DNA of 59,571 nucleotides from an uncultured delta proteobacterium (GCA_963733195.1 CAVTCR010000011.1:1-59571), one strand, 5' to 3'; numbered from the stretch's first letter, positions 1 through 13,139 are shown. Numbers and translations: made by a program. The notes: a model not told the origin generated them from the letters alone.

Positions 1-276
1 GCAGGAACAAGGAGTGAAGATTCCCGATTCCTACAAATTTGCGGTGGGGCTTTGCAAGGAGAGCGGACTGGGAAGTCCGTCGACGATCTCATCGACGGTG
101 GCATGTTCTGTATGGGCAATCCAGACGCCTGCATTAACACCTTAAAGAAGTATCAAGCTGCAGGCATCGATCAGGTCCTGTGTTTCATGCAATTCGGTGG
201 TCTTCCGCACCAGGACATCATGGATTCAATTCGCCTCTTCGGCAAACACGTCATTCCGTATTTTCGCCACGCTTGA
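1..276 (+). CDS. LLM-class flavin-dependent oxidoreductase, C-terminal part (runs off left edge)
   Basis: C-terminus GNPDACINTLKKYQAAGIDQVLCFMQFGGLPHQDIMDSIRLFGKHVIPYF is typical of luciferase-like monooxygenases; probable indel near 50. Confidence 0.8.
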   Translation, partial: AGTRSEDSRFLQICGGALQGERTGKSVDDLIDGGMFCMGNPDACINTLKKYQAAGIDQVLCFMQFGGLPHQDIMDSIRLFGKHVIPYFRHA

Positions 277-559
277 TGATCAAGTCACGCACCAAAGACG
301 ACTGTCAACATGCCGATCGACCCGTGCTCAATACCATTGACAGCAAAGGCGGTCGGCTCGTTGTCGTTCTGGAGACGTGCCACATAAAGCAGTGGCAAGT
401 AATGATCAGGCGTGGGTACTGAAAGGTGGGCTACGGACCTACCCCCTCATCATTTACCAACGCTCTGTGATTTTTCTTTTGCAATGCTTCGAGGACGCGT
501 TCGTTGTACTGTACAAATGACATCCAGACTTCCACATTTTTCCCCTTCCTCTCTCGTCC

Positions 560-1546
560 TCACCCCAACATCGACTCCAGCACTTCTGCATTCACTGGTG
601 TAGGCGGACGGTGGCCGGAAAGAAAAGCGGCAATATTCTTCGCCGCAAGGGTAGCCATACGGGTGCGTGTGGCGACACTGGCACTACCAACGTGCGGAAC
701 GATGAGACAGTTGTCTAATGACAGCAAAGGATCATCCAATGGAATCGGCTCTGGATCTGTCACATCAAGTGCGGCACCAGCAATCACTCCGTCCCTCAAG
801 GCTTCATACAAAGCCCGTTGATCAACGATCGGTCCGCGCGCCGCGTTAATGAGAAACGCCGTCCGTTTCATCAACTGAAACTGAGACGTTGATAGCAGGT
901 GACGAGTCTCTGGTGAGAGGGGAACGAGGACCACAACAAAATCTGATTCATGCAATAGTGTTGGCAGGTCAACCCACGTACAACCGAATCGCTCTTCTGT
1001 TTCAGGGTTCCGACCACGATTGGTATAGAGGACCCGCATGTCGAAACCTTGCGCACGTTTGGCCACTTCGGTGCCGATGCGTCCTAAGCCGATAATCCCA
1101 AGGGTAGCGTGGTGAACGTCGGTACCAAGGAAAACAAACGGGCTCCACGTCGGCCAACTTCCTGAGCGGACAAGGCGTTCTCCTTCGCCAATTCGTCGAG
1201 CGATAGCAAGAAGCAAGGCAAATGCGAGATCTGCCGTAGTCTCGGTCAGCACCCCTGGAGTATTGGTAAAAACAATTCCATGACGCGTCAGTGCTGGGAC
1301 ATCGACATTGTCATAACCGACAGCCATATTGGCGACAATCCGCAGCCGAGGTGCATGCGATAAGAGGTCTTGATCAATACGTTCGGTTACCATGCAGAGG
1401 AGTGCATCAGTGTCGTGCACTTCTTGAAGTAGAACGTCTCGCGAGATGGCTTGGTCGCGTTCCCACACCTTGAGATCACCATACGGACGCAGTAAAGCAA
1501 GGGCCGTCTCTGGAATTTGGCGTGTGACATAGATTTTCGTGGGCAT
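560..1546 (-). CDS. D-2-hydroxyacid dehydrogenase (glyoxylate/hydroxypyruvate reductase, GyaR-like)
   Basis: MAVGYDNVD, TPGVLTETTADLAF, GIIGLGRIG Rossmann motif, INAARG, LDVTDPEP, PHVGSA; ATG at 1546 with GGAGG RBS. Confidence 0.9.
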   Translation of the reverse strand: MPTKIYVTRQIPETALALLRPYGDLKVWERDQAISRDVLLQEVHDTDALLCMVTERIDQDLLSHAPRLRIVANMAVGYDNVDVPALTRHGIVFTNTPGVLTETTADLAFALLLAIARRIGEGERLVRSGSWPTWSPFVFLGTDVHHATLGIIGLGRIGTEVAKRAQGFDMRVLYTNRGRNPETEERFGCTWVDLPTLLHESDFVVVLVPLSPETRHLLSTSQFQLMKRTAFLINAARGPIVDQRALYEALRDGVIAGAALDVTDPEPIPLDDPLLSLDNCLIVPHVGSASVATRTRMATLAAKNIAAFLSGHRPPTPVNAEVLESMLG

Positions 1547-1634
1547 GTTCCGCCTCCCGGAGAAAAATGGCATAAGGGTGAACGTCATCATTAAGAAGGG
1601 TCGGCCGGAAAGCAACCCGCACGGGAGGATCGTT

Positions 1635-2042
1635 ATGAAAGAGCCGCCATCAGAGAAAAGCATGCAGCGTATGCGTGTATACGTACAGAAATACTGGGAA
1701 AAAAGTGGCACGTTTCCCCATCCTGACAAAGAAGTGACCGAAGCCGTCGTCCTCGGACTCGCTGGAAACATCGATGAAGTTGGACGACCGTTGTGTCCGT
1801 GTAATTTCTACCCAGACAAAAAGGCCGAGCTCGACCGCAGTCGCGAATGGGTCTGTGCCTGCGATGAAATGAAACAATGGAAGTATTGCCATTGTTTACT
1901 GTTTGTGACACCAGAGGGGATGCCAATCACCGAACACCTCCCTGAAGATCACGAAGGCCGGCAAATTTACGGCTTGGTGAAAGACCCCACGCCGGGTAAA
2001 GGGCGAGAGGCGTTCAAAGCAGCCAACGAAACAGAAGAATGA
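1635..2042 (+). CDS. Ferredoxin-thioredoxin reductase catalytic subunit family protein
   Basis: CPC...CAC...CHC motif triad (LCPC, VCACDE, YCHCLLF); GGAGG RBS before ATG 1635. Confidence 0.85.
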   Translation: MKEPPSEKSMQRMRVYVQKYWEKSGTFPHPDKEVTEAVVLGLAGNIDEVGRPLCPCNFYPDKKAELDRSREWVCACDEMKQWKYCHCLLFVTPEGMPITEHLPEDHEGRQIYGLVKDPTPGKGREAFKAANETEE

Positions 2043-2075
2043 CAGGCGTTCGCTACAATAGAAGGAGGGAAGGTT

Positions 2076-2960
2076 ATGAAAATCGGATTTTTTGCTGTTG
2101 GTATCGGCCCTGCGGCTGACCCTGAAATCCTCGCAACGACGGCCCAGACTGCCGAGACGTGCGGGTTTCACTCGTTGTGGGCTCCAGAGCATGTCGTGCT
2201 GATTGACCAGTACGTTTCCAAATATCCCTACTCAGCAGACGGCAGATTGCCGATGCCAACGACCAAGATTGACATTCTGGACCCCTATGTCGCCCTGACC
2301 TACGCGGCGGCGCTGACCAAAAAGATTCGTCTTGGGACGGGTATCAGTTTGATCCCAGAGCGCAGTCCTGTTGTCACGGCAAAAGAAGTTGCCAGTCTGG
2401 ATAAATTGTCCGGTGGTCGTTTTGATCTAGGCGTGGGTATTGGCTGGCTCGCAGAAGAATTCACTGCGGTTAACGTGCCGTGGGAACGGCGAGCCGAACG
2501 GACGCGCGAGTATCTCAAAGCGATGAAGCTCCTGTGGACCAACGAAGAGCCCGAGTTCAAGGGCGAATTTCTCAGTTTTCCTAAAGTGCGCATGTATCCC
2601 AAGCCAGTGCAGAAGCCATATCCACCGATCATCTTCGGTGGCGAGAGCACCCCAGCCCTCAAGCGTGTAGGGGAAGTGGGAGATGGTTGGTTTGGTGTGA
2701 ATGTGACTCCGGAAGCTGCGCCGACCTTGCTTGCACGCATGAAGCAATACGCGCAGGCGGCAGGACGTGGGAACGTGAAACTCTCGTTCGCCGTATCGCC
2801 TGGCATCGGCTCACCGGTCGAACTCGACGCGATCAAGCGATACCGCGACGCAGGTGTGGACCAAGTGATTGTCGGCGCGATTCCGAGTGACGCAAAGACA
2901 GTGAAAGGTGCGATCGAGCAGTTGGCGGAAAAGCTAGTCGTCCCGTCAGCGAAGCTATAG
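2076..2960 (+). CDS. LLM-class, probably F420-dependent oxidoreductase (Rv2161c-like)
   Basis: GFHSLWAPEHVV, LGTG, SLDKLSGGRFDLGVGIGW, PKPVQKP..PIIFGG motifs. Confidence 0.85.
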   Translation: MKIGFFAVGIGPAADPEILATTAQTAETCGFHSLWAPEHVVLIDQYVSKYPYSADGRLPMPTTKIDILDPYVALTYAAALTKKIRLGTGISLIPERSPVVTAKEVASLDKLSGGRFDLGVGIGWLAEEFTAVNVPWERRAERTREYLKAMKLLWTNEEPEFKGEFLSFPKVRMYPKPVQKPYPPIIFGGESTPALKRVGEVGDGWFGVNVTPEAAPTLLARMKQYAQAAGRGNVKLSFAVSPGIGSPVELDAIKRYRDAGVDQVIVGAIPSDAKTVKGAIEQLAEKLVVPSAKL

Positions 2961-2980
2961 GCCAAACTTACACCAGGTTC

Positions 2981-3012
2981 GGTGGGCAAAAGCGCAGCGT
3001 TGCCCACCCTAC
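2981..3012. repeat. GTAG-type REP-like hairpin between convergent genes
   Basis: GGTGGGCAA...TTGCCCACC inverted repeat followed by CTAC. Confidence 0.5.
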
Positions 3013-3045
3013 TTCTATCCCTCTCTAAGAACTGGAAACTGGCAA

Positions 3046-3513
3046 CTATTCCAGGAGAACCTCCACCGCTTTCCCATGTCCGATCGACGAACCGACCATC
3101 CCGGCAAGACGTGCGCCAATGTATTTTGCGCTGAACAAACTATGAATGCGTTCTGTCTCTTTTTCATCATCAATAAACTTGGCCTTACCAGGAAACGATA
3201 TCGAGCCAATTTTGAGCGTCATTTGCGGGTTCTTCTTAAGGTTCTGATACCAATCAGACTTTCCCCCTTTTCCAGATTGTAAATACAGGTGACCCTGGTC
3301 GTAGACAAACCAGATTGGTTTGGTGTGCGCCTTGCCACTCTTGCGACCAGTTGTCGTAAGATCAACTGTCGATTCGTTGGCAACTTTCTCCAAGTCTGTT
3401 GTAGTAACCGGCTTTGCTTCTTGAGCAAAAAGAAAAACTGAAGGGCTCACACATAGCGCCATCCCGAAAATCAAAGCAAGAAACCATCGCTCACAGTCAT
3501 ATTTTGCCGTCAT
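3046..3513 (-). CDS. Deazaflavin-dependent nitroreductase-like (FDOR-A/DDN) protein with N-terminal signal peptide
   Basis: LTTTGRKSGK and DWYQNLKKNP motifs; hydrophobic N-terminus ending FLFA-QE. Confidence 0.75.
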   Translation of the reverse strand: MTAKYDCERWFLALIFGMALCVSPSVFLFAQEAKPVTTTDLEKVANESTVDLTTTGRKSGKAHTKPIWFVYDQGHLYLQSGKGGKSDWYQNLKKNPQMTLKIGSISFPGKAKFIDDEKETERIHSLFSAKYIGARLAGMVGSSIGHGKAVEVLLE

Positions 3514-3651
3514 TTGTTCTCCTCATTCATCGTTCAGCGTTCAGCATTTCTTTGCATTCTTCATTCTTCATTGACTTCCCGCAATCCCTTGCTTTGCCGC
3601 TGTCTTGAAGTGTGGTAGATGCTCGGCAACACACCTCAAAGGATAGACACT

Positions 3652-4593
3652 ATGACTACTCCCGCCGTGCGTTTTGGCCTTTCGCTCACGACCGCCCATC
3701 CACAAAGTACTGACCCACAGCAATGTGTTCGCGATCTTTTGGAGCGAGTGCAGACCGCCCGCGAGCTAGGTTTTCATTCTGTATGGGTTGGCGATCATCA
3801 TGTGACTCCGCATCATTATCTACAAAACATTCCGATGATTGCCCGAATCTCCGCGGTCTCCGGTACGATGCAGATTGGTGCGTTATTCATGTTGCCACTT
3901 TTTCACCCGGTGTTACTTGCCGAACAGATTGCGACACTCGACGTGATCTGCGAAGGACGCTTTACGCTCAAAACTGCTGGAGGTGGGCAACAAGATGCCC
4001 ATGCAGCTTTCGGCATCCCGTGGAAGGAGCGGGCTGGTCGCTTTGAGGAATGCCTAGAGATCATGCGGAAGCTCTGGACTAGTGATAACGTGACCCATCA
4101 AGGAAAATACTGGCAGTTCTCTAATGTGACCATCAACCCTAAACCCGTACAGCAGCCACTGCCGGTGTGGCTTGGTGGCGATGCCGATGGTCCAGTGCGC
4201 CGTGCCGCTCGTCTCGTTGACGGTTGGCTCATTGCTCCGTGGATGTCCCTTCGTCAATGCGAAGAACGGATTGGATTCTACCGTAAAGCACTACAAGAAT
4301 ACGGGCGGACAGTCAGTGAACTCCCTATTCGTCGCGACATTTACGTTGCCCCAGATCTCGCCACAGCGAAAAAACATGCCGATCCGGTTATTCAGTCAGG
4401 CTACCGTGGGTTTACTGGTGAGAAACTCGAAGCGTTATTCGTCGGCGGCCCGGACGAGGTCATCGCCGAGATTGAGAAATACCGCCGCCTTGGCTGTAAT
4501 CACTTTCTCTTTCGCCATATCGTCCGTGAGCAGAGTCAGATGTTATCGTCTATCCGTCTTTTGGGAGAGAAAGTCATTCCCCATTTCCAGTGA
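3652..4593 (+). CDS. LLM-class flavin-dependent oxidoreductase
   Basis: GFHSVWVGDHH, HPVLLAEQIATLDVICEGRF, PKPVQQPLPVWLGG. Confidence 0.85.
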   Translation: MTTPAVRFGLSLTTAHPQSTDPQQCVRDLLERVQTARELGFHSVWVGDHHVTPHHYLQNIPMIARISAVSGTMQIGALFMLPLFHPVLLAEQIATLDVICEGRFTLKTAGGGQQDAHAAFGIPWKERAGRFEECLEIMRKLWTSDNVTHQGKYWQFSNVTINPKPVQQPLPVWLGGDADGPVRRAARLVDGWLIAPWMSLRQCEERIGFYRKALQEYGRTVSELPIRRDIYVAPDLATAKKHADPVIQSGYRGFTGEKLEALFVGGPDEVIAEIEKYRRLGCNHFLFRHIVREQSQMLSSIRLLGEKVIPHFQ

Positions 4594-4658
4594 GGACCTT
4601 TTCTCCGCAACAAAGAGTTGGTAGCGTAGAAGAAGTTTACATGCAGAGGAGGAGCCCT

Positions 4659-4991
4659 ATGGCAACCCAGTACCATTTCACAATCGCGAATGAGGCAATC
4701 AATGTATGCGCAGGAAAGTGTGAGAAACCCAGCATCACACTGACTATGAAGGAGAGCGATTACCTCGATATGATCAACGGCAAGCTCAACGGACAGATGG
4801 CGTTTATGACGGGAAAATTGAAGATTGCTGGCGATATGGGACTCGCTCTCAAACTGCAAAGTCTATTCAAGCCCAGTGCAGGTGGTTCCCCAGCCACAAC
4901 CGTACAACAAGTGATGGATGGTATGAAGGATACATTTAATAAAGATGCTGCCAAAGGGATGAATGCCACGTTTCAGTTTGATTTAACCTAA
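4659..4991 (+). CDS. SCP2 sterol/lipid-binding domain protein, circularly permuted (110 aa)
   Basis: SCP2 C-terminal signature GKLNGQMAFMTGKLKIAGDMGLALKLQSLF precedes the usual N-terminal segment TTVQQVMDGMKDTFNKDAAKGMNATFQFDLT; GAGGAGGAG RBS upstream. Confidence 0.85.
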   Translation: MATQYHFTIANEAINVCAGKCEKPSITLTMKESDYLDMINGKLNGQMAFMTGKLKIAGDMGLALKLQSLFKPSAGGSPATTVQQVMDGMKDTFNKDAAKGMNATFQFDLT

Positions 4992-5005
4992 CAGATCGTG
5001 AAAGA

Positions 5006-5029
5006 GGGCGCAGTATGCTGCGCCCCTAC
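5006..5029. terminator. REP-like hairpin / putative terminator between convergent genes
   Basis: GGGCGCAG-TATG-CTGCGCCC stem followed by CTAC. Confidence 0.55.
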
Positions 5030-5108
5030 ATTTCCCCCTTTACCATTTACTTGTTTCCATCTCTATCCGTATTGCAGTTTCGTCGTTTTCCCATTTTCTC
5101 TTCGCGGC

Positions 5109-6314
5109 TCATCGGTACAATAGCACCGACTCGCGTTCATTGCGCCAGGTGGCCTCGTCTGGGTGAGCAAGAGCATCAAGGTCAGCGGGTGTGGCCGCAG
5201 GATCATCGATCCATTGGCGTAACAGCGGACTACCGGTGATCACATCGATAGCCAGCCGGTCGCGTTCGTATTCATAGGGAAAGTCACGCCACAGATCAAA
5301 GTCCGGTCGCAGAGTCCGTAAGGATTTGAACGCCAGCGAGAGTAATCGCCAGGGCCGAAACGTGTCATGATTGTAGCTCGCGTCTTCAACGTGAATCTGT
5401 ATGCCCGCGCATAGCTTGCCAACGTGCTTATGAAACGTCGGCTCGAACCAACATTCCCTTAGTCGACAGCCATGCAGCCAGTGTGGTGCAAGGGATTCCA
5501 TCTTTGCGAGGAGCGAACGAGGGGTAAGATCTGGCGCCCCGAAAAGCTCTAAAGGGTGCGTCGTGCCACGCCCCTCGGAAAGTGTCGAGCCTTCCAGCAT
5601 CACTGTTCCAGCGTAGCAGCGGACCATCCAGAGATTCGAGGCGTTCGGGCTGGGGTTCACCCAGGTGCGCTCGCCGAGCGGCCAGCCATATCCCGGTGCG
5701 CTCGTAGGGTTCCAGCCATTCATGGTTACGACGTTGCATTCGACATCTAAATGCAACGTCTTCACAAACCATCCCGCGAGTTCACCCAGAGTGAGACCAT
5801 GACGCATCGGCAGCGGTCCCGCGCCGACAAAGCTTTCCCAGCCCGGTCGCAGCCGCAGACCTTCCACCGGACGACCTGCCGGATTGGGTCGGTCAAGAAT
5901 CCAGACCGCCTTCCGGTGCTCCGCAGCCGCTTCGAGGACGTATCGTAGTGTTGTGACAAAGGTATAGATGCGACAGCCCACATCCTGCAGATCGACGAGC
6001 AGAACGTCGAAGCTGTCCATCATCGCTGGTGTGGGACGGCGCACTTCGCCATAGAGGCTGAAGATCGGAATCCCGTGGATAGGGTCGTTGAAGTCTGGTG
6101 ACTCGACCATATTATCCTGCTTGTCCCCGCGCAGTCCGTGTTGCGGACCGAAGGCAGCAACGAGCTTGATGTCGTTGAGCGCCGCGAGCGCGTCGAGAGA
6201 GTGAACTAGATCGCGTGTCACCGACGCTGGGTGAGCAAGCAACGCCACGCGGCGACCGGCGAGAGGTTTTCGTAGGGCAGGCTCTTCCAGCAGACGATCG
6301 ATTCCGAACTTCAT
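5109..6314 (-). CDS. namZ: DUF1343 family exo-beta-N-acetylmuramidase (NamZ-like)
   Basis: FGPQHG, DLQDVGCRIYTF, LDRPNP, PMRHGLTLGEL, SEGRGTT motifs. Confidence 0.85.
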   Translation of the reverse strand: MKFGIDRLLEEPALRKPLAGRRVALLAHPASVTRDLVHSLDALAALNDIKLVAAFGPQHGLRGDKQDNMVESPDFNDPIHGIPIFSLYGEVRRPTPAMMDSFDVLLVDLQDVGCRIYTFVTTLRYVLEAAAEHRKAVWILDRPNPAGRPVEGLRLRPGWESFVGAGPLPMRHGLTLGELAGWFVKTLHLDVECNVVTMNGWNPTSAPGYGWPLGERTWVNPSPNASNLWMVRCYAGTVMLEGSTLSEGRGTTHPLELFGAPDLTPRSLLAKMESLAPHWLHGCRLRECWFEPTFHKHVGKLCAGIQIHVEDASYNHDTFRPWRLLSLAFKSLRTLRPDFDLWRDFPYEYERDRLAIDVITGSPLLRQWIDDPAATPADLDALAHPDEATWRNERESVLLYR

Positions 6315-6922
6315 TAGTTTTCCTTTTCTGTGGTTTCTCTCTTCGGTGGTACGATCTCCAACGCAAAGGAGTCAGGATGATGGAAATCAGGCTTGCCGGG
6401 CGGGTGTTTGAGTGCCCAGTAAGACAACTTCCCACTGTCATCTTCGATCACCGCAGATAACGCCAGTCGTAGTGGCTGTGTCGCCAGTAGATGCGGTAGG
6501 CGAGTACGAATGTCAAGTTCGAGACGATCTGCTGCCCTACGCACGAGCATCTGAGGTACGTGCGCTTCCTCTGCAAGTGACGTGCGGTCACGATAGCCAC
6601 GAAATTGATACACTGCCCATTCGCTCGAAGGAGAAAAATTAAACTCCCAGTACGCCGAATCGCCTTTTGCAGAAACGAACGCCTCAAAGCAGGTATGCTG
6701 CCAAAGGCCGTCGACTTTGGCTGGCAGTTGCGTCGGTGGAATCCACAGGCGACTACAGTCACCTGTAAGAGTATAGATCAGTGCAAACACGCCATCTTGC
6801 TGCCAGCCAATACGCACTGCGATCTCATGTACAGCCTGATTGATCGTCGTAGGGTGACACATGAGCACGGTAGTGCACGTCAGAGAGTACTCGATCATGT
6901 TGGTAGACTCAGCCATAAACAT
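6314..6922 (-). CDS. DOMON-like domain protein
   Basis: LWQHTCFEAF, YWEFNFSPS, SYWAL.HP.GKPDFHH motifs; stop overlaps the namZ start; exact start uncertain. Confidence 0.7.
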   Translation of the reverse strand: MFMAESTNMIEYSLTCTTVLMCHPTTINQAVHEIAVRIGWQQDGVFALIYTLTGDCSRLWIPPTQLPAKVDGLWQHTCFEAFVSAKGDSAYWEFNFSPSSEWAVYQFRGYRDRTSLAEEAHVPQMLVRRAADRLELDIRTRLPHLLATQPLRLALSAVIEDDSGKLSYWALKHPPGKPDFHHPDSFALEIVPPKRETTEKEN

Positions 6923-7417
6923 ACCTGATGGTGAAGGTTACCGTGTTGCCAGGTATGAAAGGCGAAAACAAGAATACAATTCCCTAAGCCCAGGCGAAAG
7001 TAGCACTGTCAGCGAGAGTGTTTGGCACTCGTTATACCCACGTGACAATGGGTCCCTTCTCTCCTGGTGGGAAATGGGTCCTAGACTCCTCCCTTTGACT
7101 TTCCGCGACCCCGGGCCTCGGACGCTGGACTTCTTCCCCATTCATTATTCTGCATTCTACATTCATCATTATTTGATGACGCTGGGATTCGGCTTTGCCT
7201 CATCTCAGCCTGCGTTACTGTCAATTCTCATTTCCATGCTGTCTTCAAAATTTTCCACCATAGCTTTGTGACACGTCTGAAAGCCTCCTAGGAACTTCAG
7301 CTACTTTTCGCTTTTCCGCTGTACTTATTCTCTATCTACACCCGAAGAATGACCACCTCGGCGACGGGCCCAATTCTTGCTCATTCCTCCATATTGATGC
7401 TCAGGGCTCATGACATT

Positions 7418-10400
7418 ATGGCGAAGATTATCCCTATCTCCCTATCGCCTTCATGCGACCGTAGAGCAGACGAATCTCCCTCTATTGCTACGTTTCCCTC
7501 CCGTTTTGTCGGCAGGGAACGTGAGCTCGAGGAGTTGCGTCAAGCGTTGAGCGATGCAGCAACAGGTCGAGGACGGTTGGTCTTGTTAGCAGGAGAAGCC
7601 GGCATTGGCAAAACCCGTCTGGCGGAAGAATTCACACTCATTGCGTTGCAACGGAAAGCCGAGGTCGTGTGGGGGCGCTGTTGGGAAGGAGAAGGAGCTC
7701 CTGCCTTCTGGCCGTGGCTCCAGATGCTCCGAACCCTGATCCACGCTCGGGATACTCACCTCTTACGCAAGGAGTTGGGTGCGGGCGCGGCCGATATTGC
7801 ACACGTCGTCTCAGAGCTTCGTTCACAGTTCCCTGAGATACAACCACCAACAGTGCTTGATCTTCAACATGCCCGCTTTCGTTTCTTCGATAGCGTGACG
7901 GTATTTCTGAGAAATGCCGCACGGACCCATCCGCTCGTTCTTATTCTCGATGATCTGCACTGGGCCGATACGCCATCACTCTTGCTGTTACGATTCCTGG
8001 CTCGTGAGCTTGCAGGCACACACCTGTGCCTCATTGGTACCTATCGCGACGGGGAAGTCGACCGTGCGCATCCCCTCGCCGATACCCTCGGCAAACTGAC
8101 CCGGGAGGGAACAATCCTCACGCTGGGTGGACTCGCTAGAAGTGATGTCTCTCGTTTAATTGAGAACACTCTGGGAACCACTACCACGGCCAACGTCGCG
8201 GACGCTGTGTATCAGCGAACAGAAGGAAACCCGTTTTTCGTCACCGAGATCGTCCGGCTTCTGCCGGGCGACGGGGAGAGTGCTGCGGCCCTGACACCCC
8301 TTTCTTCTTCTGATATGGCGGTTCCGCAGCGCGTACGGCAAACGATTCGCCAACGATTAGAGCGCATTTCCCCTGTATGCCAGCATGTGTTGGCAACCGC
8401 CGCAGTAATGGGGCAGGAGTTCAATCTCAAGATCATAGAGAGGGTAGAGGCAGGTTTGCAATCTACTTCTACGAAAGCAACCAGGCTTGCTTCACTTGAC
8501 GAGGCCCTGGACGCGCACCTCATTACGTGCCTGCCCGGGAACCTAGGGACGTATCGTTTTTCGCATGCCCTCATTCGCGAGACGTTATATGAAGATCTGC
8601 CGCTTGGTACACGTCTCGAACTGCACCGGCAGATTGGTGTGGTACTCGAAGCACTGGACAGAACTCACGAACACCACCTTGCTGAATTAGTCTACCATTT
8701 TGAACAAGCAGCTTCTGGGGGAGAGGCGACAAAAGCGTTGACGTACGCGGTTCGTGCGGGAGAGTATGCGACTTCCCGCCTTGCCTATGAAGACGCGGTC
8801 GATCATTATGAGCGGGCGTTGCGCATGCTCGATCTGCTGGAGCCTGATGAAAAACAACGCGGTAAGCTCCTCTTGAGGTTGGGGGATGCTTGCTGGTGGG
8901 CAGGAAAAGATGCCCAGTCTCGGGAGACCTATGAGCAGGCTTTTCATCTCGCGCAACGTATAGGAGATGCAGAACTTCTTGCCCAAGCCGCACTTAGCTT
9001 CGGTCGGGTGCGAGAAGAAACGGGGGTGCTGGATTCTGTCCTCGTTGGTTTTCTCAGGGTAGCATTACAGGCTTTGGGCGATCAGCCAAGAGTTTTACGC
9101 GCCCAAGTTCTCGCCCGCCTTTCTGTTGCACTCTATTTCTCCCCTGCGGCGGACGAACGCGAGAGGCTGAGTGCGGAAGCGCTTGCCATCGCTCGCCAGC
9201 ATGGCGACCGCAGAACCCTTGCCATGGCATTGATTGCACGCCATTTTGCGCTCTGGGGGCCGGACTATACCGAAGAACGATTGAGACTCGCCACGGAAGC
9301 TATCCGCCTGGCAGAAGATCTCAATGATCGCGATCTTATACGCGAGGGACAGGCGTGGAAAATCTTTGACTTGTTTGAAATCGGAGACAGCATTGCGCTG
9401 AATCACGAAGTCCTGAGTTACGCGCAGCGCGGTAGCGATATCCGGATCCCGCGCTACCGGTGGCATCTGCTCCTCATCTCTGCAACCCGTGCGCTTTTGG
9501 CAGGCCGATTCGACGAAGGCGAACGTTTAGCTCAGGAAGCCGTTGCCTGTCGGGATGAAAACGAAGTCAACAACGCGATGCAATTCTTCGGTGTACAAAT
9601 GTTTTGGCTCCGCCGTCAGCAGGGACGGGGTGCTGAACTGGAGCCTGCGGTTGCCGCCCTGGCTGCGCAATTCCCAACCCTACCTGCCTGGCGCTGTGCA
9701 CTCGCACTACTCTACAGTGACAGTGGTGATTACGAAAAAGCCCGCCATGAGTTTCTGTCTCTCGCCGCACGAGACTTTACCGATTTCCCCCGCGATGCCA
9801 ACTGGCTCCCTGGGCTGACGGCGCTCGCTGAAGTCTGCACTTTCCTTGGTGATAGACACCGCGCCAGCCAACTCTACACGCTGCTGCTGCCATATGCGAC
9901 CCACAATATCGTCGTCGCCACCTCCGCCGCTTGTTACGGTTCGGTCGCACGTTATCTGGGACTGCTGGCGACAACCCTCACCCGCTGGGACGAGGCCGAG
10001 GCACATTTTGCCTCCGCGCTCCATTTCAATCGCCAACTGGGTAGCCGTCCGTTTGTTGCCCACACTGAGTGTGATTACGCTTCCATGCGGCTAGCACGTA
10101 ATCAGCCAGGTGACCATGAACAGGCCCAAGTTCTTTTGCAGTCCGCTTTGACGACCACACAAGAACTGGGGATGACACGGCTGAGTGAAAAAATCGAGTC
10201 TCAAATCTCAAGTCTCGCGTTCCAAGATGTGGAAGCACATAACCATCGGCCATCGTCCCCACGCAAACCGTCAGACATCAACCCTTTGACGACTGTTGAC
10301 TCCAAACCCTGCATCTCCAATTTTCCAGCTCCTAATCCCCAAGCCCTAACCCCTACTCTGTTCCGTCGCGAGGGTGAATACTGGACAATCGCTTATCAAG

Positions 10401-10904
10401 GTAGCACCTGCCGTCTCAAACAGATGCGCGGTCTTGTCTATCTTGCCCATTTGTTACGCTACCCTCACCACGAGTTCCACTGCTTTGAATTCATCGCCCT
10501 AACCACTAAGGAAGGCCAGGCTGGCGTGACGAGTGACACCGTAGACTCCTGTGCTTGATACCCAAGCCCGCGCGGCCTATCGCCAGCGGCTGACTGATCT
10601 CCAGGAAGAGTTAGAAGAAGCGCAAGGCTTTCACGACTTAGCACGTATCGAGAAATTGCAGCAGGAGATGGATTTTCTCACCCAAGAACTCAGTGCTGCC
10701 TTAGGGTTAGGCGGGCGGACGCGGCAGGTGGCATCTCAGACAGAACGGGCCCGGGTCAACGTCACTAAAGGAATCAAAGCGGCATTGCAAAAGATCGCCG
10801 TGCTCAATCCGGAACTGACGCAGTATCTGACGCGCACGATCAAGACCGGCACGTTTTGCTCGTACACTCCTGTCTGCCGGTTCCCCGTGCAGTGGGAATT
10901 TTAA
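7418..10904 (+). CDS. STAND-type AAA ATPase/TPR transcriptional regulator (frameshift near 10550)
   Basis: FVGRERE, Walker A GEAGIGKT, LDDLHWAD, GNPFF, FSHALIRE; C-terminal FRREGEYW...ERARVNVTKGI domain continues in ORF 10551..10904. Confidence 0.85.
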
Positions 10905-11100
10905 GCCCCCAGCCGGGTGCACCACGGCCTGATGAATTTTGCTGATCATATTCGGTAATCATCCAGTGATGCCAGTTTCTCTCTGCACAGCCACACTGTA
11001 GTGGAGATCCTGGAACCGTACGGGTTGAGCTTGTCGAAGTTCGCCCAGCGCAAAATTCTCCCTCCCACAAAAATTTCTCTTTTTCCTCGTGTTCTCGCTA

Positions 11101-11119
11101 CGAGTCACACTGTGACTCG
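11101..11119. promoter_or_regulatory. Perfect palindrome, candidate operator
   Basis: CGAGTCACA-C-TGTGACTCG in the intergenic region upstream of the secreted-protein gene. Confidence 0.45.
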
Positions 11120-11331
11120 AAAAGTCACGCCTTAGAGATAAAGACACCGCGGTTCTGTACCGCAGAGGAGGCATACATGACGGATGACAATATCTAACAC
11201 AGCGCTGGTGTAGAGGCTGCTTGCGGCGCGGGCGAAGCGATCACCCTTGGGTTCTTCTGCTTCGCACGGGTGGCAAGGGGTACAGCAGAGTCAATCAACT
11301 AGTGAAGAACCCTGATGAGGAGATCCTGATT

Positions 11332-11757
11332 ATGAGCAAGACCTTTAAGAATCGTTTGGCCATCGCCGCTGGGACTATCAGCTTAGTATGGGGAAGCATA
11401 GCAACCGCTGCACCGCTCCCCAATGTCCTGGGCACCTGGACCATTGTCGGCAATCAGCATGTCGGGTCGTTGAGAATCAGCAGCCAAGCTGGTCCCTTAC
11501 CGTGTCAGGCGATCAACGGTACGATCTATCCAGGCACGTCCGTCAGTCACCCCGTGCGCGGTTATTACTGCCCGGCGACCGGTCGAATTGCCTTTGCCCG
11601 CAAAAATACCGCAGGTGTGGTCATTCAGACCTGGGTGGGGAACGTTTCCGATGTGATCGCGAGCGCACCGCATCGCATGGGTGGGACTTTTCATGCGTTA
11701 GATACCGCTGCGGGTTCTGGGATCCTTGGCGAATATCACTTCCAAGGTCAGAAATAG
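11332..11757 (+). CDS. Small secreted beta-rich hypothetical protein
   Basis: GAGGAG RBS; signal peptide MSKTFKNRLAIAAGTISLVWGSIATA-A; two Cys in the mature part. Confidence 0.7.
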   Translation: MSKTFKNRLAIAAGTISLVWGSIATAAPLPNVLGTWTIVGNQHVGSLRISSQAGPLPCQAINGTIYPGTSVSHPVRGYYCPATGRIAFARKNTAGVVIQTWVGNVSDVIASAPHRMGGTFHALDTAAGSGILGEYHFQGQK

Positions 11758-11928
11758 GGCTCTTCGCAGCCCGTTCAAGTCGGGGTTCTCCTTTCGAGCC
11801 ATGCTTGAACGGGCCTCAGCCGAGGAGAAACGGCTCACCCTCACTACCCGCGGGCGCTTTTGCAGAGAACCTGAGACGGCTCCTGACGCAACGCCCGCGG
11901 GATTCTTTATACAGATCGAGTAGAGGCC

Positions 11929-12948
11929 ATGACAAAAAAGTTCTTGATCTCCGTAATCATTTTAGGTGTGTCACTTGGAGTAGGCGCGATGCTTGTCGGC
12001 ATTCGCAACGACATGATTTCTCACCCTGCGCCACCCCGGGAACGGCATCGAGCGACCGCTACCAGCGACATCACCCCGGCAGGTAAACAGAATACCGAGT
12101 CCAGAGCAAAGAATAACCCGCAGCGTAGCCCAACTCCCAAAGATGTCGCCACGAGTGTAGAGCCATCACACCAACCGCGCCCTCATAGTAGCCTAGACGT
12201 TGAAGTCCAGGGTGGCGATGTGACCCTCCGTGTGGAAAACCAATCACTCAAGAAGGTATTGGGGGTCCTGGCTCAGGAGAGCGGCATCCAGATCAACGCG
12301 CAACTCATCGCGGACCGACCCGTGAGCATTCAACTCATCCGCGTCCCATTTGACCGCGCGCTGCAGACCATGCTCGAATTTGAGGACAGCTTTTTTGCAT
12401 TCGCAAATCAGGGAACAGCTAATGTTGCCCTAAAAGCGGTATGGGTGTTACCGGCTGGTACTGGTGAAGCCTGGCTGCCACAAACCTCCACATGCTCTCA
12501 CGAACTATCCGAACTTGAACAGCAACTTACCTCTGCGCAAGCGAGCCAGCGTGCCGAGGCACTCGAAACTCTGATCGATCTTCAGGGCCCCAACGCCTCA
12601 CAAGTCGTTGTACAGGCTCTGGGAGATCAAGATGATGACGTGCGCTATCGAGTCCTGCGAAAGGTGCATGTTACCGGCCTTGCCCTTCCGCCCGAGGTCC
12701 TATCAGACCTCGTCCAGCATGATAGCGCTGAACTGGTTCGCATGATGGCCGTAGAGGTCATTGGTAACCACCCTGCTATTGATGAGCAAGACAAGATTGC
12801 CTTTGCTCGTTACGCTATCAGCGATGTAAGCCCTGCGGTACAAACGCGGGCGAGTGAGATCTTAAGCCACCTTGAGTCCGCGCCTCTAATTCGTGAACAA
12901 GACCAAATGCTATATGACGAAGCAAACCGGGAAATATTTGACGAGTGA
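11929..12948 (+). CDS. Membrane-anchored protein with an STN/secretin-N-like domain and HEAT repeats
   Basis: N-terminal TM helix; VTLRVENQSLKKVLGVLAQESGIQI segment; repeats ALGDQDDDVR, HDSAELVR, SDVSPAVQ. Confidence 0.65.
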   Translation: MTKKFLISVIILGVSLGVGAMLVGIRNDMISHPAPPRERHRATATSDITPAGKQNTESRAKNNPQRSPTPKDVATSVEPSHQPRPHSSLDVEVQGGDVTLRVENQSLKKVLGVLAQESGIQINAQLIADRPVSIQLIRVPFDRALQTMLEFEDSFFAFANQGTANVALKAVWVLPAGTGEAWLPQTSTCSHELSELEQQLTSAQASQRAEALETLIDLQGPNASQVVVQALGDQDDDVRYRVLRKVHVTGLALPPEVLSDLVQHDSAELVRMMAVEVIGNHPAIDEQDKIAFARYAISDVSPAVQTRASEILSHLESAPLIREQDQMLYDEANREIFDE

Positions 12949-13139
12949 TGAAGCAAATTGGAGGCTGGGTCGTGACCCAGCCTCCAGTACTCTGTCCATC
13001 TGAAACTGTAGAATGTATCACGGACAACAGACCGTCAGGCCGCCCTTCAACTGGCTCAGGACAAGTTCTGGCGGGCATCCAGGAAGATGCAGTCCAAACC
13101 TTCGTCATTTTGTCTGGCTTCCCGCTGAGTCTTTGAGCT

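Follow-up and report, generated by a model that had tools for sequence, protein, structure and literature searches.

Can the chain of a small lipid-binding domain be rotated, with its old ends joined and new ones opened, and be kept as an intact gene? The question is raised by an open reading frame (ORF) at positions 4659 to 4991 of a 59,571-nucleotide stretch of DNA from an uncultured delta proteobacterium (GCA_963733195.1, CAVTCR010000011.1:1-59571), which we call the window. A sequence-only reading had proposed that this ORF encodes a circularly permuted SCP2 lipid-binding domain. Its translation is a 110-aa protein, named pSCP2 here, and we consider it very likely that this is a single-domain protein of ~12 kDa with the SCP2 lipid-binding fold and a rotated chain order. 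That pSCP2 is a circular permutant of the SCP2 fold, taken as a structural and evolutionary claim, is held with the same high confidence.

Order of the SCP2 segments

Canonical bacterial SCP2 domains follow the order helixA-(helixB)-beta1-Gly turn-beta2-beta3-beta4-helix-helix-beta5-last helix. This N-to-C order is not found in pSCP2, although the protein scores well over the gathering cutoff of the Pfam SCP2 model (PF02036; Table 1), which aligns its positions 33 to 101 of 101 with residues 3 to 71 (72.1 bits, E value of 5.2e-20). A profile built from 86 canonical relatives gathered in this analysis recovers both parts of the domain in swapped order, with positions 40 to 109 on residues 2 to 71 (113 bits, 7e-37) and positions 5 to 36 on residues 79 to 110 (33 bits, 4.8e-12). 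Each of the two stretches of the profile is matched a single time, so every SCP2 element is present once. When pSCP2 was concatenated with itself, the same profile gave one match, from position 5 to position 109, over residues 79 to 181 (151 bits, 1e-48). The protein therefore has both swapped homologous segments and, once doubled, a single full-length alignment, as a circular permutant does. The sequence-only reading had expected the two swapped matches from Pfam itself; the Pfam model gives one, while the profile of closer relatives gives both. A comparison of the permuted and canonical alignments with hhalign, which reports a single match per run, returned the core match only (3 to 74 on 40 to 111).

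Direct comparison with individual canonical proteins gives the same result. In BLASTP alignments with the canonical single-domain protein P0128 (109 aa), query residues 4 to 70 correspond to residues 42 to 108 (73% identity, 2e-35) and query residues 79 to 110 to residues 5 to 36 (56% identity, E value of 1e-11). The P0128 residues left out are only 37 to 41, the GDGGG turn between beta1 and beta2 (profile positions 37 to 39), which places the new termini at this turn and leaves its Gly-rich loop missing, as had been proposed. Another canonical protein, P0136 (112 aa), likewise gives swapped segments; the identity of the tail across relatives is 47 to 56% (E values of 1e-11 and 2e-8), and the QFDL motif of segment B is invariant in 31 homologs. 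A scan of 1.84 billion cluster representatives recovered many canonical SCP2 proteins of 107 to 112 aa with two matched stretches each. Canonical proteins thus share all the elements of pSCP2, once each and in the same length, but in pSCP2 the chain is rotated, the GDGGG turn is lost, the old termini are fused, and the genomic context is another one.

The old termini meet in a seven-residue junction. In the alignments with P0136, query residues 5 to 74 extend to the final residue of the subject and query residues 79 to 110 begin at its residue 5; residues 75 to 78 of pSCP2 (GGSP) therefore stand for residues 1 to 4 of P0136 (MAGT), with no insertion or deletion. The old termini are indeed joined, as the sequence-only reading had it, but not by an added Gly/Ser linker: the junction is the old tail running straight into the old head, and the number of residues is unchanged. 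It is the most variable stretch among the aligned homologs.

Two other family assignments were tried and rejected. The best NCBIfam model is UbiT (NF047962), at 20.7 bits against a cutoff of 46.9, and the C-terminal domain of alkyl sulfatases (PF14864) reaches 25.4 bits against a cutoff of 27; pSCP2 stands alone at 110 aa.

Gene boundaries and flanking signals

The ribosome-binding site, the clean TAA stop codon, and the downstream hairpin that had been described for the gene were all read between 4646 and 5025 (Table 1). A longer alternative frame opens with a GTG at 4590. The N terminus of all 31 aligned homologs is MAT, MAA, MAI, MST, or MPT, including MATQ, and because they share this start, the conserved start of pSCP2 is the ATG at 4659 and not the GTG. 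The sequence GAGGAGGAG ahead of it is unchanged in a second copy of the gene on another contig of the genome (C46).

The hairpin downstream has 8 bp (arms at 5006 to 5013 and 5018 to 5025, loop TATG) and a folding energy of -18.6 kcal/mol (z = -4.08), and none of 200 shuffled sequences folds equally well. It has no T-run and was not called by a simple terminator scan of 3400 to 5200, which found no terminator-like site. A promoter scan of the same interval gave no promoter-like site on the plus strand.

Table 1. Features of the pSCP2 gene and its neighbors in the window
Feature	Position	Strand	Basis or remark
LLM oxidoreductase (first)	2076-2960	+	TIGR03619, 252.7 bits, over cutoff
Deazaflavin-dependent (F420H2 quinone-reductase-like, DDN-like) oxidoreductase	3046-3513	-	TIGR00026, 53.1 bits against 46.35; PF04075, 4e-14
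Second LLM (luciferase-like) oxidoreductase, F420 type	3619-4593	+	Pfam Bac_luciferase, 1e-53
Shine-Dalgarno-like sequence GAGGAGGAG	4646-4654	+	4 nt ahead of the ATG, read in the sequence
pSCP2 (permuted SCP2 gene)	4659-4991	+	110 codons and TAA; Pfam SCP2, 72.1 bits against a cutoff of 21.3
Segment A, residues 2-71, canonical C-terminal two thirds (beta2 to last helix)	4662-4871	+	Profile positions 40-109
Junction, residues 72-78 (PSAGGSP), old C-terminal tail and old N-terminal head	4872-4892	+	Alignment with P0136
Segment B, residues 79-110, canonical N-terminal third (helixA and strand beta1, ending QFDLT)	4893-4988	+	Profile positions 5-36
G+C hairpin, possible terminator without T-run	5006-5025	+	15 nt past the stop codon
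NamZ gene, convergent	5109-6314	-	Downstream of pSCP2

Predicted structure

An AlphaFold model of pSCP2 computed with 31 homologs has a mean predicted local distance difference test score (pLDDT) of 88.4 and a predicted template modeling score (pTM) of 0.77. Its elements are strands at 3-10, 13-18, and 26-30, helices at 32-39 and 45-50, a strand at 55-58, helices at 60-69 and 82-92, and a strand at 102-109, the last two at a pLDDT of 89 to 93. The junction is the block of lowest pLDDT (mean of 72). For comparison, the model of canonical P0128, computed with 30 canonical sequences (pLDDT of 88.1, pTM of 0.77), has helices at 8-18 and 21-24, strands at 29-36, 41-48, 51-56, and 64-69, helices at 70-77 and 83-88, a strand at 93-96, and a helix at 98-108. 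Shifted by +38, elements one to seven of pSCP2 coincide with the final seven of P0128; shifted by -74, the two remaining elements coincide with helix 8-18 and strand 29-36. The modeled helixA, beta1 to beta5, and C-terminal helix thus correspond one to one between the two proteins. Starting at beta2, the pSCP2 chain would run to the last helix, cross the joined old termini to reach helixA, and end with beta1, so that the new termini would lie at the lost Gly turn.

The best structural matches are the SCP-2-like domain of human multifunctional enzyme 2 (1ikt) and mammalian SCP2 (1c44 and 2c0l), whose residues 44 to 120 superpose on model residues 1 to 75 with a root mean square deviation (rmsd) of 2.1 to 2.2 and a core identity of 40 to 44% (for 1ikt, 75 aligned residues, rmsd of 2.2, Z score of 7.5). 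These proteins differ from pSCP2 in being eukaryotic and of canonical order, and model residues 78 to 110 are left unmatched in sequential superposition. A partial match is what sequential aligners are expected to return for a permuted protein; as a control, the canonical P0128 model matches the same SCP2 entries over 104 residues with a Z score of 15.0. Foldseek against the PDB also places SCP2 entries at the top, over 56 to 67 columns at low rmsd, none of them at E <= 0.001. A VIA search against 48,161 solved chains ranked SCP2-superfamily entries highest, aligned to model residues 1 to 77, and returned no chain collinear with the whole pSCP2 model, a result that does not imply that no such structure exists. 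Likewise, phmmer matched 13 PDB sequences, and not one of them covers pSCP2 collinearly.

Distribution and phylogeny of the permuted form

A word-indexed protein search returned 1,768 proteins at E <= 1e-3. The best 120 of these are 103 to 174 aa long and align to pSCP2 in one local alignment with 93 to 100% query coverage and 65 to 93% identity. Only a permuted protein can give collinear coverage of this extent, so these homologs are permuted too, and the permuted topology is common to at least 120 protein clusters. In the databases they are named "SCP2 sterol-binding domain-containing protein," "putative sterol carrier protein," "predicted lipid carrier protein YhbT," or "hypothetical protein." Clustering at 50% identity reduces the permuted forms to about four representatives (P0079, P0122, P0126, and P0129).

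Genes were then sorted by arrangement at the level of loci. Among the best 80 loci in contigs from one genome per species, eight are permuted (L001 to L008), and 43 of the remaining 72 show the swapped segments of canonical genes. The 80 metagenome loci comprise 38 complete permuted genes (one of them, L097, on the same contig as L002), 8 permuted-type pieces that are cut by a contig end or interrupted internally, 31 canonical genes with both segments, one tandem (L154), and two unclear cases. In a sample of the window's class, all 19 genomes of the window's family, which cover three genera and include several single-contig genomes, have a full-length collinear match (62 to 91% identity). In 18 other families of the class, the permuted form is found in none of 132 genomes and a canonical match in one. 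In a sample of the phylum, the permuted form is found in 2 of 401 genomes, that of the window and the sole other family member there. Public records assign the permuted loci to Candidatus Binatia, Thermodesulfobacteriota, or "Deltaproteobacteria" metagenome-assembled genomes (MAGs), and Candidatus Binatota is the name most often given to the ESM Atlas clusters.

For the phylogeny, permuted rows were computationally reordered and aligned with canonical relatives (FastTree, 128 rows by 110 columns). The 50 distinct permuted rows form one clade with an SH-like support of 96, a value that comes from a fast method and a short alignment, and a single change of state is needed. The orthologs of the same topology that the sequence-only reading suggested looking for are thus present across the whole family, and tandem SCP2-SCP2 proteins were found as well. 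The permutation is a conserved family trait and not a one-off.

One single-contig genome (G513) carries two permuted copies, L175 (C1:1676582-1676914) and L176 (C1:5186611-5186943). One lies inside the conserved block from IspD to RpoD that is described below, and the other is a longer form of 181 aa in an unrelated context.

Maintenance of the gene and alternative explanations

Proportions of nonsynonymous (pN) and synonymous (pS) differences were computed against eight close relatives, and both are given here instead of dN/dS since synonymous sites are saturated (pS of 0.7 to 0.86): pN is 0.062 and pS 0.706 for residues 1 to 70, 0.109 and 0.486 for residues 71 to 81, and 0.039 and 0.787 for residues 82 to 110. 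Both halves of pSCP2 are under strong purifying selection and the junction, where pN is highest, is less constrained. Contigs from four public runs (two DNA and two metatranscriptome libraries) are collinear on pSCP2 with 90 to 99% likeness; one spans 4571 to 5001 and another 4487 to 4694, with no joints or indels within the gene. These runs contain just 0.12 to 0.25 of the sampled words. They consist of contigs, and DNA may be present in RNA libraries, so the runs bear on collinearity and not on transcription, on the ends of transcripts, or on co-transcription; of the RNA-library contig at 4571 to 5001, only 23 letters fall within the LLM gene.

The first part of the window has a second version in the same genome. 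Positions 1 to 13020 match the end of contig C46 (31970 to 44986) with 98.1% identity, and positions 6770 to 13020 match the start of contig C10 (1 to 6257) with 98.3% identity, so that this region is either a strain variant in the bin (contamination of 4.49%) or a repeat that interrupted the assembly. On C46, the pSCP2 copy (L082, 1492 to 1530) has a 1-nt insertion after codon 5 that leads to a frameshift and an early TGA, while its protein is 100% identical from residue 28 onward; one variant is therefore broken, as a pseudogene, or mis-sequenced. Public-run contigs over the site of the insertion show no indel. Apart from this near-identical second copy, the genome of the window gives one weak match on contig C83 (41% identity, within a longer frame) and no close canonical SCP2 copy.

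Several of these observations weigh against the permutation as we describe it. Pfam sees one SCP2 stretch only in pSCP2 and, given just the final 36 residues, makes no SCP2 match at E <= 10. The frameshift in the C46 copy and the saturation of synonymous sites belong here too. The probable placement of residues 79 to 110 at the helixA/beta1 position in space is based on homology and the order of the elements, not on coordinates, and a shared three-dimensional fold is indicated indirectly, by the rotated elements and the superposition of 75 residues; folding is predicted by the model, and a hydrophobic lipid tunnel and ligand binding are putative.

We weighed three other explanations of the gene against these points. 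The missing Pfam match of the last 36 residues would suit an N-terminally truncated SCP2 whose unrelated tail resembles the SCP2 N terminus by chance. This is contradicted by the swapped alignments and by the 86-relative profile, which place the tail on canonical residues 5 to 36 with the E values given above; in addition, the tail is modeled as the expected helix and strand and is as constrained as the core, with QFDL invariant, so that truncation is extremely improbable. We give as little credence to an assembly artifact or a longer tandem-SCP2 gene broken by errors. The twin of the first 13 kb, which marks the region as an assembly break point, and the frameshifted copy on C46 speak for it. 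On the other side, 18 further family genomes, of which several are single contigs, carry the same gene of 109 to 112 aa, as do 38 metagenome contigs. The contigs of the four public runs are collinear without joints, and a six-frame profile scan of 4300 to 5400 found no further SCP2 piece beside pSCP2, so the gene is not what remains of a longer tandem gene. The independent genomes, the flank scan, and the collinear contigs contradict this explanation. A domain-swapped dimer, in which two chains exchange strand beta1, has topology alone in its favor, as the cut lies in the beta1-beta2 hairpin and the new termini are at a sheet-internal hairpin; the monomer is confidently modeled, with a pLDDT of ~93 for the C-terminal strand, and we regard the swap as improbable. 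The swapped alignments, the match of the doubled sequence, the collinear alignment over the junction of a tandem SCP2-SCP2 protein, the rotated models, the flanks free of SCP2 remnants, and the many assemblies all argue for a true circular permutant and not a fragment, in agreement with the sequence-only reading. The presence in 19 of 19 family genomes and on 38 metagenome contigs, the selection, and the independent contigs show that pSCP2 is a real, maintained gene.

Origin of the permutation

The most likely origin of the permutation is duplication followed by trimming. A canonical SCP2 gene would have been duplicated head to tail and fused, after which copy 1 would have lost its first third and copy 2 its last two thirds. 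Tandem SCP2-SCP2 proteins have the arrangement expected of the duplication intermediate, with a junction that is collinear with pSCP2, and differ from it in retaining two complete domains. In one of them (P0125, 221 aa), query residues 4 to 110 are collinear with residues 42 to 147 across the domain junction (33% identity, 1e-21). P0123, P0124, and P0142 are further tandem proteins, and several longer multi-SCP2 proteins have similarly long stretches. The tandem metagenome locus L154 (768 to 1625) codes for a 286-aa protein of SCP2 units, in which query residues 5 to 110 are collinear with residues 87 to 211 over one junction, and again with the last core.

The duplication route fits because tandem proteins exist and the junction is free of indels. 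In the tree, the domains of P0125 group with canonical sequences and do not branch as sisters of the permuted clade, so this protein exemplifies the route without being the ancestor. The permutation would have arisen once, in the ancestor of a family-level clade that is labeled Candidatus Binatia or Binatota in public records, and every searched genome of the window's family keeps the permuted gene. Canonical relatives in sister families lie at another locus with an adjoining gene of ~500 aa; in related MAGs with the same canonical arrangement, this gene has a BON domain and MacB/FtsX genes are found nearby.

Genomic neighborhood and possible function

The pSCP2 gene follows a group of genes for oxidoreductases of F420-dependent types (Table 1). 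For the second LLM gene, the best NCBIfam model is TIGR03619, at 143.9 bits and under the cutoff of 166.9. The DDN-like protein has a hydrophobic start, WFLALIFGMALCVSPSVFLFA, with the predicted look of a signal peptide or membrane anchor. Upstream of these genes is a 167-aa ORF (1539 to 2042, plus strand) with Cys-rich motifs, which weakly matches the FtrB family double-selenoprotein model at an E value of 2.9e-9 (36.8 bits against a cutoff of 160); ORFs of 165 to 167 aa occupy the equivalent place in L002, L084, and L086. Downstream, NamZ is found in the window and in L088, and in the closest relatives (87 to 91% identity) the convergent gene codes for a family III CoA-transferase (L084, 4411 to 5778; L086, 4410 to 5618; L085, 1756 to 2217). 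Neighboring ORFs of 133 to 158 aa in L087, L088, L091, L092, L093, and L098 gave no Pfam family.

Neighbors were counted over 45 distinct permuted loci, of which 40 show the upstream gene and 41 the downstream gene. In 19 loci, the gene directly upstream is a same-strand ortholog of the second LLM gene; in 11 it is a divergent DDN-like gene, in 10 something else, and in 5 it is off the contig. In seven of the LLM loci the DDN-like gene is found just beyond. Directly downstream there is an isocitrate/isopropylmalate-type dehydrogenase (IsoDH) in 19 of 41 loci and AnmK in 13, and RpoD is usually convergent after IsoDH. The conserved block reads IspD, CarD, DDN-like gene (minus strand), LLM gene in some loci, pSCP2, AnmK in some loci, IsoDH (plus strand), RpoD (minus strand). 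Elsewhere in the genome, a cluster on the minus strand (G000:C73:131973-136342) codes for cofE, cofD, and cofH, all over the NCBIfam cutoffs, so the organism can make F420; a second cofH/cofG-like frame adjoins this cluster.

From these neighbors, it is possible, if doubtful, that pSCP2 shields a hydrophobic ligand for the adjacent F420-dependent enzymes. The ligand would be a lipid, an alkyl chain, or an isoprenoid quinone, as in other SCP2 proteins, and would be passed to or taken from the DDN-like flavin/deazaflavin oxidoreductase and the LLM oxidoreductase. The sequence-only reading had the gene co-transcribed with that of the LLM enzyme, which is plausible, and the association of the LLM and DDN-like genes with pSCP2 is putative. 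Four homologs of 168 to 174 aa (P0107, P0110, P0116, and P0126) have a C-terminal extension of ~60 residues that ends in a hydrophobic stretch resembling a transmembrane segment, and they may be membrane-anchored variants.

The main rival to this function is that pSCP2, although permuted, does a job unrelated to its F420 neighbors, as a general or housekeeping carrier of lipids such as isoprenoid quinones or envelope lipids in a neighborhood that was simply inherited vertically, and we give this nearly an even chance. Much of the neighborhood speaks for it and so against a role with the F420 enzymes: RpoD, IspD, CarD, and IsoDH are housekeeping genes, and IsoDH or AnmK is what often lies directly downstream; 21 of the 40 loci have something other than the LLM gene as the direct upstream neighbor; and where the LLM gene does adjoin pSCP2, the two genes are separated by 65 nt in the window and by 64 to 163 nt in 19 relatives, with no overlaps. 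Since the permuted loci all belong to a single family-level clade, the neighborhood may reflect common descent and not function. Against a general carrier stand the DDN-like or LLM gene found directly upstream in 30 of 40 loci and the window's own genus, where the synteny with IsoDH and RpoD is lost downstream yet the F420-type genes stay adjacent.

The proposed role beside the F420 enzymes can be taken one step further, to a version that we think unlikely. In canonical SCP2 proteins, the old terminal helices flank the entrance for the ligand. Once fused, they would form a covalently closed lid, and with the termini at the far edge of the sheet, the free C terminus would be able to take a membrane anchor, as in the homologs with transmembrane-like extensions. 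The permutation would then have been kept because it changed the mechanism of the carrier, making pSCP2 a dedicated substrate chaperone that would supply the neighboring F420-dependent reductases of Binatia with a membrane lipid or quinone, and the first natural SCP2 permutant to be described.

Relation to known proteins and implications

Both the kind of event and the fold are already known. Natural circular permutants include saposin and swaposin, and concanavalin A with respect to favin, in which a fold was rotated by way of duplication and trimming; this is the same kind of event as in pSCP2, in other folds. UbiJ and UbiT are SCP2 accessory factors of ubiquinone biosynthesis and serve enzymes that act on a hydrophobic isoprenoid quinone, a bacterial precedent for such a role of the domain. 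Their match to pSCP2 is weak in sequence and fold (PDB 6h6n to 6h6p, with a Z score of 5.2 to 5.4 for UbiJ; NF047962), and they differ in their canonical order; pSCP2 is no member of this group. In the literature covered, which lies mostly outside the subscription journals, there is no permuted SCP2 among work on SCP2 or sterol carriers and circular permutation (an earlier description is possible), nothing on SCP2 with F420 and luciferase-like enzymes, and nothing relevant on SCP2 or sterol carriers in Binatota or Binatia.

Natural circular permutations show that the topology of a protein can change while its fold is kept, and pSCP2 is a clean case, with canonical relatives, tandem repeats, and an indel-free permuted form all extant. 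The coexistence of the three forms, together with the lack of a close canonical copy in the window's genome, makes the route by duplication and trimming testable. The family also exposes a blind spot of annotation: it carries generic SCP2 names and no NCBIfam model fits it, permuted proteins receive the plain label "SCP2 domain-containing," and Pfam recognizes no more than two thirds of the domain. For the biology of these bacteria, the lead is a functional one: in an uncultured lineage that makes F420, a small lipid carrier is encoded next to F420-dependent oxidoreductases.

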